Under the pieces are notes generated by a model, which had not been told where the DNA came from, made no database searches, and saw only the letters and a list, made by a program, of their open reading frames with translations. The translations under genes and the position numbers were made by a program. A DNA stretch of 64,000 nt from a bacterium (GTDB lineage: Bacteria; Myxococcota_A; Bradymonadia; UBA7976; UBA1532): positions 56,412 through 120,411 of the forward strand of contig JAWKQS010000026.1 of assembly GCA_041389985.1 (NCBI GenBank). Reading direction: 5' to 3'. This document shows positions 22,195 through 25,562 of this stretch, one piece after another. Within the stretch, counting starts at the first letter, position 1; each line of letters begins with the position of its first letter.

Positions 22195-22965
22195 CTACTC
22201 GAAGTCGGCCCAGACAGGGGCGTGATCACTGGGCTTTTCGCCGCGCCGCTCGTCCATGTCGATGGCGACGTCCACGAGCCGTCGGGCCAGCGGCGCGCTG
22301 GCCCAGACCTGGTCGATGCGCAGGCCGTCGTCCTTCTGGAAGCCCAGGTTGCGGTAGTCCCACCAGGAGTGGTGCCCCGCCTCCTGCACCTTCAGGCGAA
22401 ACGTGTCCACGAGGCCCCAGGCGGTCGTGACCTCGTGGAGCGCGGCGCGCGCCTCGGGCCGGCAGAGTACCGAGTCGGCCCAGCGGTCCACGTTGCGGAC
22501 GTCGCGATCCTCGGGCGCCACGTTGAAGTCGCCGCAGAGGGCGATGGGCTGGCCGGGGTCCAGGTGGCGGTCCATCCACGCGCGGAGGCGGGCGTACCAC
22601 TCGAGCTTGTAGGTCCACTTGTCGCTGTCGGGATCGCCGCCGTTGGGGACGTAGGCGGAGATGATCCGGACGCCGTCGACCAGGCCGGCGATCAGGCGCG
22701 CCTGGGGATCGTCCACGTCGTCATCGATGCCCTGCCAGACGTCCTCGATGGGCGACCGGGCGACGATGGCCACGCCGTTGTAGGTCTTCTGGCCCAGGAT
22801 CTCGGCGTAGTAGCCGAGCTCGCCGATCTCGTCCCACGGGAACCCGGGCCCCTCGTTCTTGAGCTCCTGGAGGCAGACGACGTCGGGCTCCCGCGACTCC
22901 AGCCAGTTCAGGAACCGATCGGTCCGCGCCACGATGGAGTTGACGTTCCAGCTCGCGATCCTCAT
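22195..22965 (-). CDS. xthA: Exodeoxyribonuclease III
   Basis: MRIASWNVNSI…VVCLQELK…LCGDFNVAPEDRDV…SDHAPVWADFE* is the classic ExoIII/APE motif set. It lies 1 nt downstream of the Bax1-like gene. Confidence 0.95.
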   Translation of the reverse strand: MRIASWNVNSIVARTDRFLNWLESREPDVVCLQELKNEGPGFPWDEIGELGYYAEILGQKTYNGVAIVARSPIEDVWQGIDDDVDDPQARLIAGLVDGVRIISAYVPNGGDPDSDKWTYKLEWYARLRAWMDRHLDPGQPIALCGDFNVAPEDRDVRNVDRWADSVLCRPEARAALHEVTTAWGLVDTFRLKVQEAGHHSWWDYRNLGFQKDDGLRIDQVWASAPLARRLVDVAIDMDERRGEKPSDHAPVWADFE

Positions 22966-22966
22966 C

Positions 22967-24214
22967 TCAACCTCTTGACTTTGTTTTCAAATCACCGAGA
23001 GGCGCCTGAGCGTCCGGCCGCAGCACCTCCAGCCGCTCCAGCACCTTCCGGGCGCTCATCACGCCCTTGTAGACGTAGAGCTGGCCGGGCAGGTCGTCCT
23101 CCAGGGCGGCCTCGCTGACGCGCAGGCGCTCGGTGACGGCGAAGATCACGTTCTCGCGCAGGCCGGCGCGCACGAGGTCAACGCGCTTCCAGACCGCCTC
23201 CCGGCTCCAGAACCCGAGCACCTCCAGGTAGGCGCGCGTGCCGTCGGGGTGGCTGAACACCAGATCGGGTACGCAGAGCCCCACCCCCGGCAGCGCCAGC
23301 AGGCGGGTCGACCGCCGCACCCGCCACGGGCTGTCGAGGGCCCCGAAGCGCTGTACCAGCTCGGCGACGTCGTCGGGCAGCGGCAGCTCGGCCCCCACCC
23401 CGCCCCCGCGCTCGCCCTTCAGGAAGAAGCGCACCCGCTCCGGGGGCTTGCCGAAGAGCAGATCGGCCTCGAGGGCCCAGCGGGCGCAGGCGCGGATGGG
23501 CTCCAGCATCATCGCCAGGCGCAGCCCGTACTTCCGCGTCGCCGAGAAGAGGCTCTGGGGGCCATCGAGGGTGACGCGGTAGCCGCCCTCGCGCCCCTCG
23601 ATGGTGTAGAGGAGCCGGTGGAACTTCAGGGAACGAAAGAGGTTTCGCCAGATGGCGGCGTCCTCCTCCTCGATGTCCACCACCACGCGCACCGCCAGCA
23701 GCAGCGCCGCGCGCTCCTGCTCACGCTCGTACTCGGCGAGCAGGGCCTCGGGGGTGGTGGCGTCGAAGGCCACCAGCAGGTGGGCATCCTTCAGATCGGC
23801 GAAGAGGGCCGCCTCAAGGGCCCGCGGCTCCAGGGCGAGGGCCGCGGCCGACTCGGCGATCACCGACGCGCGGTCGAAGGGCTGGAGCGGATCCAGGGCC
23901 CGCCGCGCCGCCGTCGCCCGGGCGAAGACCTCCGCGCGCAGCGTGGCGGGCGGGTGGCCCACGTCCATCTCGAAGGTGCAGCGGTCGGTGACGAGCTTCG
24001 TGAGCCCGGCGAAGACGCGCTGATCGGCGTGGCCCACGGGTACCTCGCCCACGGCCTCGCGGAACGCCTCGCGGCTCTCCCCCACGCTGTTGGTCGCGGC
24101 CTGGATGAGCCCCTCGGCAGCTTCCAGCAGGCGGGGACGGGCGGCGGCGGGGATGGGGCGCACCTCCACCACATCCTTCGTGCGCTTCCAGCGGACCAGA
24201 TCAGCGGTAAGCAC
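22967..24214 (-). CDS. Bax1-like DUF790 family nuclease (XPB partner)
   Basis: 415-aa ORF overlapping the 3' end of the XPB-like helicase gene by 14 nt. Its length and composition are DUF790/Bax1-like (…LEVLGFWSREAVWKRVDLVRAG…). Confidence 0.7.
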   Translation of the reverse strand: MLTADLVRWKRTKDVVEVRPIPAAARPRLLEAAEGLIQAATNSVGESREAFREAVGEVPVGHADQRVFAGLTKLVTDRCTFEMDVGHPPATLRAEVFARATAARRALDPLQPFDRASVIAESAAALALEPRALEAALFADLKDAHLLVAFDATTPEALLAEYEREQERAALLLAVRVVVDIEEEDAAIWRNLFRSLKFHRLLYTIEGREGGYRVTLDGPQSLFSATRKYGLRLAMMLEPIRACARWALEADLLFGKPPERVRFFLKGERGGGVGAELPLPDDVAELVQRFGALDSPWRVRRSTRLLALPGVGLCVPDLVFSHPDGTRAYLEVLGFWSREAVWKRVDLVRAGLRENVIFAVTERLRVSEAALEDDLPGQLYVYKGVMSARKVLERLEVLRPDAQAPLGDLKTKSRG

Positions 24215-25562
24215 TGTGCTCCCTGCGGCGCTGGCTGGTGTAGGTCTCCGCCGTCTCCTCGGCGACCAGCTCGTAGAGAATCGCCTGCTTGTCCGCCTGC
24301 TTGCGCAGGATGCGCCCGAGGCGCTGGACGTGCTCGCGCACGGAGCCCGAGCCCGAGATGACGATGGCGACGTTGGCCGACGGCACGTCGACCCCCTCGT
24401 TGAGCACCTTGGACGTGGCCACCGCGCCGTAGCGGCCCTCGGCGAAGCCGGCGAGGATGTCGCTGCGCTCCAGCACCGGGGTCTGGTGGGTGATGACCGG
24501 GATGAGGAACCGCCGAGCGACCTGGTAGGCGGTGTCGTTGTTCTGGGTGAAGAGCAGCACCCGGTCGGCGCGGTGGCGGTGCAGCAGGTGCTCGACGAAC
24601 CGCAGCTTCGAGGGCGCCGCCGCCGCCAGCGTCTTCTGTCGCCGCCAGGCCAGGAGCGCCCGGCGCCCCTCCGCGGAGCGCGCCGCCCGCTGAAGGAACT
24701 GCTGCCACGCCCCCTGCTGCGAGAACCGGATGCCCTGGGAGGCCACGAAGGCCCGGTAGATGGCCCGCTCGTGCTCGTAGGCCTGCCGCTCGTCGTCGGT
24801 GAGGGGCACCGAAAGCGTCTCGGTGGTGTACTCGGCGAGGTAGTCGCCGGCCAGCTCGACCACGTCGCGCTGGTAGACCATCGGCCCGATCAGGCGGTCG
24901 AGCTCGGCGTGGCGACCGTCGGCGCGCTCGGGGGTGGCCGACAAGCCGAGCCGGTAGGGCGCCAGGCACATCTCGGCGCCCAGGGCGTAGGACTCGCCCG
25001 GCAGGTGGTGGCACTCGTCGAACACCACGAAACCAAAGCGGTTTCCCAGGTGCTCCATCTGCGCCCAGGCGGAGTCGTAGGTGATGACCGTGAGAGGCTG
25101 CACGTCGTGGCTGCCGCCCCCCACCACGCCGACGGGCTGGGCGAAGGCGCTGCCGAGCAGGTCGTACCACTGGCGCACCAGATCGAGGGTGGGCGCCACC
25201 ACCAGCGTCGAGCGCCGGATGGCGTCGATGGCCAGCATGGCCACCCAGCTCTTCCCGGCCCCCGTCGGCAGGGCCACCACGCCCCGCCCCCGGTTCTTCT
25301 GCCAGGCGGCGAGGGCCTCGGTCTGGAAGGGCCGCGGCGGCCGCTGGATGGCGAGGCCCGAGGCCAGCTCGGTGTAGCGCCGGGCCTCGTCCGTCCAGGG
25401 GAGCTTGCGCCGCACCAGGCCCATCACGACGTCGGCGTAGGCCTGGGCCGGCGCCCGCCAGCAGCGCGTCCGCTCATCGAACCGGACGCCCTCGGGGAGC
25501 ACCGCGGCGTCTTCCACGTCGTGGATCTCCAGGGTGCCGGCGTTGAAGGCGAGGCGCGTCAT
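24201..25562 (-). CDS. XPB/Ssl2/RAD25-type superfamily-2 DNA helicase
   Basis: …VVALPTGAGKSWVAML… (Walker A), …FVVFDECHHLP… (DECH box), …LGLSATPER… and …ILRKQADKQ… fit helicase motifs. The ~450-aa size and damage-recognition-like N-terminus fit prokaryotic XPB. Confidence 0.85.
   Translation of the reverse strand: MTRLAFNAGTLEIHDVEDAAVLPEGVRFDERTRCWRAPAQAYADVVMGLVRRKLPWTDEARRYTELASGLAIQRPPRPFQTEALAAWQKNRGRGVVALPTGAGKSWVAMLAIDAIRRSTLVVAPTLDLVRQWYDLLGSAFAQPVGVVGGGSHDVQPLTVITYDSAWAQMEHLGNRFGFVVFDECHHLPGESYALGAEMCLAPYRLGLSATPERADGRHAELDRLIGPMVYQRDVVELAGDYLAEYTTETLSVPLTDDERQAYEHERAIYRAFVASQGIRFSQQGAWQQFLQRAARSAEGRRALLAWRRQKTLAAAAPSKLRFVEHLLHRHRADRVLLFTQNNDTAYQVARRFLIPVITHQTPVLERSDILAGFAEGRYGAVATSKVLNEGVDVPSANVAIVISGSGSVREHVQRLGRILRKQADKQAILYELVAEETAETYTSQRRREHSAYR

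Follow-up and report, generated by a model that had tools for sequence, protein, structure and literature searches.

The closest described systems are the archaeal XPB-Bax1 pairs of A. fulgidus and S. tokodaii (Protein Data Bank (PDB) entries 6P66, 6P4F, 6P4O and 6P4W; entry 8GY8 is Bax1 of P. furiosus), in which the genes for the helicase XPB and the nuclease Bax1 are adjacent. The archaeal helicase has the domain order DRD, HD1, ThM, HD2, and Bax1 is a PD-(D/E)xK/VRR-Nuc-like nuclease (PMC7293015). In eukaryotes, XPB of TFIIH works with XPG, likewise a structure-specific nuclease, which cuts the 3′ side of a bubble (PMC7293015). The XPB studied in bacteria is that of M. tuberculosis (the actinobacterial type of model NF045503), also an SF2 helicase of the XPB family, which has a eukaryote-like N-terminal domain and no DRD or ThM; according to the same 2012 paper, a complex of the XPB-Bax1 type had yet to be identified in bacteria (PMC3353954). 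A pairing of COG3372/DUF790 proteins with SSL2-type helicases was noted by Feder and Bujnicki in 2005 (PMC1189080), and for a 2026 review XPB-Bax1 is still an archaeal system, and what XPB does in bacteria is elusive (PMC13024598). We analyzed a 64,000-nucleotide stretch (hereafter the window) of contig JAWKQS010000026.1 from a bacterium of the Bradymonadia (Myxococcota_A), which encodes a helicase, a DUF790 protein and exodeoxyribonuclease III (ExoIII) at positions 22,195 to 25,562. From the comparisons below, the locus probably encodes bacterial orthologues of the two proteins of the archaeal XPB-Bax1 machine, with an ExoIII gene drawn into the same transcription unit within the lineage, and its role is most likely accessory repair or processing of branched DNA rather than main excision repair.

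An earlier reading of the window made from its letters only (the sequence-only reading) had described three tightly packed open reading frames, with a 14-nucleotide overlap and a 1-nucleotide gap. The coordinates and junction sequences agreed with this description, and the genes are arranged as follows:

xpb, 24201..25562, minus strand: archaeal-type XPB helicase of 453 residues, intact open reading frame
bax1, 22967..24214, minus strand: DUF790/Bax1 nuclease of 415 residues, intact open reading frame
xthA, 22195..22965, minus strand: exodeoxyribonuclease III of 256 residues, intact open reading frame, co-oriented with bax1

The helicase had been called XPB/RAD25-type, and profile and sequence searches placed it with archaeal XPB rather than with unrelated SF2 families. 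Pfam detected XPB_DRD (E = 6.7e-13), ResIII (2.6e-25), ERCC3_RAD25_C (2.1e-22) and Helicase_C; PF18458 (XPB_DRD) scored 48.7 bits over residues 4-60 (cut-off 26) and PF16203 (ERCC3_RAD25_C) scored 80.1 bits (cut-off 27). When all PDB sequences were searched with phmmer, A. fulgidus XPB (AfXPB; 2FWR/6P66_A) was the best match (4e-106), followed by S. tokodaii XPBII (4e-103), both over residues 20-448. With eukaryotic TFIIH XPB the match was split into two stretches and reached 1e-25 to 1e-29; other SF2 helicases scored 1e-9 or worse. The window protein is 41.5% identical to AfXPB over 426 aligned residues, and the archaeal proteins have the same length and domain order. Its ATPase motifs PTGAGKS (residue 99), DECHH (182) and QRLGRILR (413) each align with their AfXPB counterparts. 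For comparison with bacterial relatives we scanned one genome per species, which gave 405 encoding stretches; locus counts in this paper refer to the best 80 of these (L001-L080). Across 72 bacterial homologues from these loci, the residues of Walker A, the DExH box and motif VI either did not vary or were replaced conservatively. The region expected to form ThM (window residues ~225-330), which lies after motif III and before HD2, aligned with AfXPB free of gaps. Judged from these alignments, the XPB ATPase core is intact and is accompanied by DRD and ThM regions. The NF045503 equivalog 'DNA repair helicase XPB' gave 201.1 bits in two stretches, below its 610-bit cut-off, and the window protein therefore falls outside it. 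Because the M. tuberculosis enzyme has neither DRD nor ThM, the window XPB belongs to the short archaeal type and not to the type studied so far in bacteria; unlike the mycobacterial protein it has both a DRD and a Bax1 partner.

The DUF790 assignment of the second gene held on profile search and at the level of the predicted fold. Neither of the two outcomes that the sequence-only reading had named as refuting it was observed. PF05626 (DUF790) matched over its full length (positions 1-387 of 387) with E = 5.4e-83 and 279.4 bits, against a cut-off of 28.8. The Bax1 sequence by itself retrieved the archaeal Bax1 chains of the PDB at 9e-18 to 3e-11, and a profile built from 24 bacterial homologues did so at E 7e-35 to 3e-31. 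An AlphaFold2 model computed with 118 homologues had a mean predicted local distance difference test (pLDDT) score of 91.1 and a predicted template modelling (pTM) score of 0.83, with the last 12 residues disordered. Foldseek searches of the PDB with this model returned archaeal Bax1 chains (from 8GY8, 6P4W, 6P4O, 6P66 and 6P4F) as all of the top eight matches, with E 3.6e-24 to 6.7e-20, template modelling (TM) scores of 0.57-0.68 and alignments of 405-430 columns, whereas the next match had E = 1.9e-3. From the N-terminus, the protein is predicted to consist of an XPB-binding domain, a Cas2-like domain and a nuclease domain of the PD-(D/E)xK type. Functional residues were mapped to AfBax1 as numbered by DuPrez et al. 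(PMC7293015), and their conservation was assessed over 81 sequences:

AfBax1 D305 (nuclease): window D317, invariant (81/81)
AfBax1 E318 (nuclease): window E331, invariant (81/81)
AfBax1 D133 (XPB interface): window D140, invariant
AfBax1 Y131: window position 138, Phe or Tyr
AfBax1 Y155: window Y162, kept in 73/81

The window protein is thus modelled as an archaeal Bax1 fold, shared over ~410 aligned columns, with the nuclease-site Asp and Glu invariant. The interface Asp is also common to both, and the invariance of D140 is an indirect sign that the window Bax1 binds XPB. Sequence identity to archaeal Bax1 is ~20%. The archaeal endonuclease Bax1 equivalogs NF053694 and NF053695 scored 88.2 and 86.0 bits, below their cut-off of 500. 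The protein is ~50 residues shorter than AfBax1, and since profile alignments to AfBax1 stop near its residue 336-347 of 468, the AfBax1 C-terminal domain of ~70 residues appears to be reduced or mostly absent. By these sequence criteria the window Bax1 is a clear member of the DUF790/Bax1 family that belongs to a divergent bacterial subfamily.

The pair was next compared with other systems that contain related proteins. Further features that set it apart from the archaeal pairs are its bacterial host and the ExoIII gene in the same putative transcription unit. XPG belongs to a nuclease family different from that of Bax1, and no TFIIH partner proteins are encoded at the window locus. An XPB-like core is also found in PbeA, a PADLOC defence model, and in the Dnd-associated restriction helicase TIGR04095, which matched the window XPB at 1.9e-48 and 1.2e-35. 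The match was limited to the helicase part (profile positions 371-635 of 672; 123 bits against a cut-off of 600). The PbeA and Dnd models of PADLOC have no DUF790 partner, and no phosphorothioation genes are found near the window pair. Exactly this pair is annotated on Deinococcus plasmids in RefSeq and in metagenome-assembled genomes, as a 'DEAD/DEAH box helicase family protein' (COG1061) next to a 'DUF790 family protein' (COG3372), with no functional statement. The pair was therefore already in the databases under uninformative names; it is correctly recognised here as XPB-Bax1, and as such is a fairly ordinary find.

The genome scan indicated that the two genes travel together. All of the 80 loci are from metagenome-assembled genomes, of Myxococcota, Vicinamibacterales, Poribacteria, Gemmatimonadota and Planctomycetota, and no cultured myxobacterium is among them. 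The closest genome (Myxococcales JACKDP010000002.1) encodes proteins with 88% (Bax1) and 94% (XPB) identity to those of the window. XPB lies directly upstream of Bax1 in 78/80 loci, one exception being a contig end, and the overlap is exactly 14 nucleotides in 68 of the 77 loci in which it could be evaluated, mostly with a GGGAG- or GGGAC-like site before it. Bax1 homologues are numerous: 1309 sequences were found at E < 1e-5 in a collection clustered at 90% identity, the named ones being labelled 'DUF790 family protein' and coming from Myxococcales, Acidobacteria, Poribacteria and others, and a search of 50%-identity representatives gave 1964 matches at E <= 1e-3 and 421 at E <= 1e-30. When the genes closest to the pair on either side were clustered across the 80 loci, no conserved third partner emerged, the clusters having at most 3-4 members; Pfam assigned 137 families to these 119 neighbours, the commonest of them in just four. 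On sequence grounds, the conserved unit is the two-gene XPB-Bax1 cassette, and it is widespread in bacteria.

The junctions between the genes and the region upstream of xpb contain the following elements:

xpb/bax1 overlap GTGCTTACCGCTGA, 24214-24201, minus strand: 14 dual-coding nucleotides that hold the stop codon of XPB together with the GTG start of Bax1
AGGGAG, 24224-24219, minus strand: Shine-Dalgarno-like site 4 bases 5′ of the bax1 GTG
bax1/xthA junction, 22976-22966, minus strand: Shine-Dalgarno-like AAGAGG at 22976-22971, TGA at 22969-22967, spacer G at 22966
xthA ATG, first base 22965, minus strand: 1 nucleotide after the bax1 stop, with AAGAGG 5 bases upstream
intergenic region separating xpb from the divergently oriented M74/LysM peptidase gene, 25563..25678: presumed promoter region
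GGTAGAA, 25571-25577, minus strand: candidate −10 element 8-9 nucleotides before the xpb ATG

The XPB frame ends with AGT GCT TAC CGC TGA and the Bax1 frame begins inside it (GTG CTT ACC GCT GAT), which makes the overlap a candidate site of translational coupling. All three frames have a strong coding signature, with a G+C fraction of 0.92-0.96 at third codon positions (GC3) versus 0.43-0.48 at second positions (GC2), in a window of ~72% G+C. The genes lie on one strand with no space for a promoter or terminator between them, both in the window and in L001, and the xthA stop is 6 nucleotides from that of a convergent DUF1415 gene. A scan of 21900-26000 revealed no terminator-like and no sigma-70-like site. 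In an alignment of five loci, GGTAGAA was kept in L001, L002 and L005, and a variant, GCTACAA, occupied the same place in L025; it was the sole conserved element in an otherwise poorly conserved region upstream of xpb. This motif may serve as the −10 element of a near-leaderless xpb mRNA.

The pair is also carried by Deinococcus megaplasmids and by haloarchaeal plasmids, under the same two generic names as above. The haloarchaeal plasmid matches span only the C-terminal 45% of the DUF790 query. By coordinates, the 14-nucleotide overlap is present in four of the six Deinococcus copies that we examined. Their neighbours are varied:

D. wulumuqiensis: TnpB and a transposase
D. psychrotolerans: restriction-modification subunits
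D. proteolyticus: an IS630 element and ParAB
D. peraridilitoris: topA
D. gobiensis I-0 plasmid P1 (L082), 4399-8583: four co-oriented genes in a row, for a spore-photoproduct-lyase family protein, the XPB-like helicase, DUF790 and a small hypothetical protein

The adjacency to the lyase gene in D. gobiensis is one independent association of the pair with repair. In the genome paper of D. gobiensis the lyase (splB) is discussed with no mention of the adjoining helicase, and neither this paper nor a broad review of Deinococcus repair mentions the XPB-Bax1 pair. The window XPB shares 43-47% identity with the Deinococcus XPBs, which in turn share 42-45% with AfXPB. Going by pairwise identities only, the myxobacterial, Deinococcus and A. 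fulgidus proteins are roughly equidistant (41-47%). These values fit an old, horizontally exchanged two-gene cassette; equidistance gives no direction of transfer, and an archaeal origin is not demonstrated by it.

By analogy with the archaeal work (PMC7293015, PMC7672443, PMC13024598), coupled translation would supply XPB and Bax1 in matched amounts. As in the archaeal structures, the two proteins would then form a 1:1 heterodimer through the N-terminal domain of Bax1 and the HD2/ThM region of XPB. XPB would grip a duplex/single-strand junction or a bubble, translocate at the expense of ATP and widen it, and a nick in one of the arms there would be made by the nuclease domain of Bax1. The xpb-bax1 transcription unit of this lineage would in addition have taken in an exonuclease III gene of the housekeeping type, and speculatively the co-translated ExoIII of this clade might trim or resect from the Bax1 nick.

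Several observations weigh against reading the pair as a bacterial repair machine of the archaeal kind, or against including xthA in it. AfBax1 E275, a further nuclease residue, aligns to the variable window position 288; the nearby position 282 is acidic in 80/81 sequences and could stand in as the third nuclease acid, and the equivalence is ambiguous. The position corresponding to AfBax1 E135 (window 142) is Lys or Arg. The RED motif (Arg-Glu-Asp) of XPB, which comes after motif III, reads R213-A214-D215 in the window (24920-24928). Among the 72 homologues its Arg is invariant, its Asp is found in 71 (with one gap) and the middle residue is Ala, Thr, Gln, Val or Gly, and at the level of the alignment R-x-D is a family-wide departure from archaeal and eukaryotic XPB. 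Using the LexA-box consensus of the M. xanthus type, we found eight matches at three mismatches across the window, where 14 were expected by chance. No LexA-box-like site, and hence no damage-inducible operator of this type, was found in the xpb promoter region or elsewhere in 21900-26000, and SOS control of the locus was rejected. Mutations in RED weaken archaeal XPB (PMC13024598). Archaeal XPB deletions cause only slight ultraviolet (UV) sensitivity (PMC7690668), for which reason the label 'repair' is a soft one. Our literature search found no experimental study of a bacterial XPB-Bax1 pair, in agreement with the statement of the sequence-only reading that the bacterial versions are sparsely studied. 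Finally, xthA lies within 6 kilobases (kb) of the pair in only four of the 80 loci, all from the closest clade. It adjoins bax1 only in L001, with the same 1-nucleotide junction as in the window; in the other three (L002, L005 and L025) it is on the same strand ~1.1-1.9 kb past bax1, with a gene between. In L002 a signal-peptide/lipoprotein-like open reading frame (7200-8306, plus strand) fills this gap. The spacing in L005 is the same as in L002, and an open reading frame of the L002 type is found in neither the window nor L001.

These data on xthA bear directly on a reading that joins the three enzymes XPB, Bax1 and ExoIII in one dedicated pathway, with Bax1 nicking 3′ of a lesion and ExoIII resecting in the 3′ to 5′ direction. 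The 1-nucleotide gap with its internal ribosome-binding site, present also in L001, and the co-oriented xthA less than 2 kb away in three more relatives speak for such a pathway, as does the proposal that the archaeal complex cuts 3′ of the bubble centre (PMC7293015). They are set against the 76 of 80 loci, and all six Deinococcus loci examined, that have no xthA near the pair, and against the intervening DNA in L002, L005 and L025. Because the same four loci also share a gene for an M74/LysM peptidase upstream of the pair, ordinary synteny suffices to explain the xthA linkage. XthA itself scores as an ordinary ExoIII equivalog (TIGR00195, 251.1 bits with a cut-off of 182.55, and TIGR00633, 238.1 bits with a cut-off of 99.05, both over residues 1-255; Pfam Exo_endo_phos, 8.2e-32). 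Such a pathway thus appears very improbable, and we give equally little credence to its fuller version, a UvrABC-independent single-incision route in which XPB opens the DNA, Bax1 nicks 3′, coupled ExoIII resects 3′ to 5′ through the lesion and a polymerase fills the gap. With its occurrence near the pair limited to the four closest relatives, xthA is better regarded as a lineage-specific passenger. The three-gene operon of the sequence-only reading is physically present in the window, but xthA stands outside the conserved module, and on the available sequences the xpb-bax1-xthA arrangement is not conserved beyond one clade.

Two other explanations concern the pair itself. It might act on DNA structures other than lesions, for instance stalled forks, R-loops or transcription bubbles, processing or remodelling junctions rather than excising lesions. 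The mild UV phenotype of the archaeal deletions is compatible with such a role, and the literature sees XPB-Bax1 as the archaeal counterpart of excision repair, which leaves the role in bacteria open (PMC3353954). However, the N-terminal damage-recognition domain is kept in XPB, the pair adjoins xthA here and a photoproduct-lyase gene in D. gobiensis, and no replication or transcription genes recur beside it; we consider this explanation unlikely. Alternatively, XPB-Bax1 could be a mobile defence or selfish helicase-nuclease module directed against foreign DNA, a character that Feder and Bujnicki explicitly did not exclude (PMC1189080). Its patchy, cross-phylum distribution would suit a mobile module, as would the plasmid copies in Deinococcus and haloarchaea, some beside TnpB/transposase, IS630 and partition, or restriction-modification genes. 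The equidistance of the myxobacterial, Deinococcus and archaeal XPBs fits repeated transfer, and the XPB core resembles PbeA and the Dnd-associated restriction helicases. The genomic surroundings point the other way. In the window the flanks encode PheS/PheT, a sensor kinase, a flavin reductase, a MetX-like hydrolase, DUF1415, the M74/LysM peptidase, AckA-PduL and a Ser/Thr kinase, with no integrase, transposase or defence gene among the genes that flank the pair, and the flanks are similarly housekeeping and varied across the 80 loci. With PADLOC-DB 2.0, Bax1 and XthA had no match and XPB matched only the helicase part of PbeA; the sole matches shown among the 119 flanking genes were three generic Ser/Thr kinases. 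A defence-island context was rejected after this search of the three proteins and their neighbours. No methyltransferase or other self/non-self partner accompanies the pair, no homologue occurs in 50,697 phage records or in IMG/VR viral contigs, and the four closest relatives keep the M74/LysM peptidase and xthA neighbours. A defence or selfish module is accordingly improbable, and we favour a bacterial XPB-Bax1 orthologue pair with an accessory role in repair or branched-DNA processing.

Elsewhere in the window, the sequence-only reading had pointed to PdeM next to fur, and both genes were identified. PdeM (38494-39201, minus strand) is a ligase-associated damage-response endonuclease (TIGR04123, 198 bits; cut-off 150), and a gene for a Fur/PerR-family regulator (38058-38483, minus strand) lies 10 nucleotides downstream. 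Their immediate neighbours encode a predicted lipoprotein of 521 residues with no NCBIfam match and a peroxiredoxin; as these are not a ligase or an Lhr-type helicase, PdeM looks detached from its usual operon partners. A link of PdeM/Fur to the XPB locus was rejected, since the two are ~13 kb apart with unrelated genes between them and no connection was found. The acetate kinase gene (26888-28642, plus strand) is fused to a PduL-type phosphotransacylase domain and contains an in-frame TAG (27326-27328) at the conserved Tyr of RRYGFHG. In L001 this codon is TAC (Tyr) within an intact fusion of 582 residues; the TAG of the window has arisen either by nonsense mutation or through a sequencing error. 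Two regions of the window (4000-12900 and 29800-34300) have 76-80% G+C and long overlapping open reading frames on both strands, which a GC3-based gene call did not resolve.

In archaea no excision-repair pathway has been defined, and the in vivo role of XPB-Bax1 is unsettled there (PMC7690668). The bacterial cassette is useful in this respect, being tightly coupled, widespread and present in cultured Deinococcus species, which therefore provide culturable hosts in which roles in repair, fork processing and defence can be tested against one another. The window adds one more example of the cassette, together with an xthA linkage that is specific to the lineage and suggestive of repair but no proof of it. 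If the assignment is true, the cassette of culturable Deinococcus could help to settle what XPB-Bax1 does in vivo.

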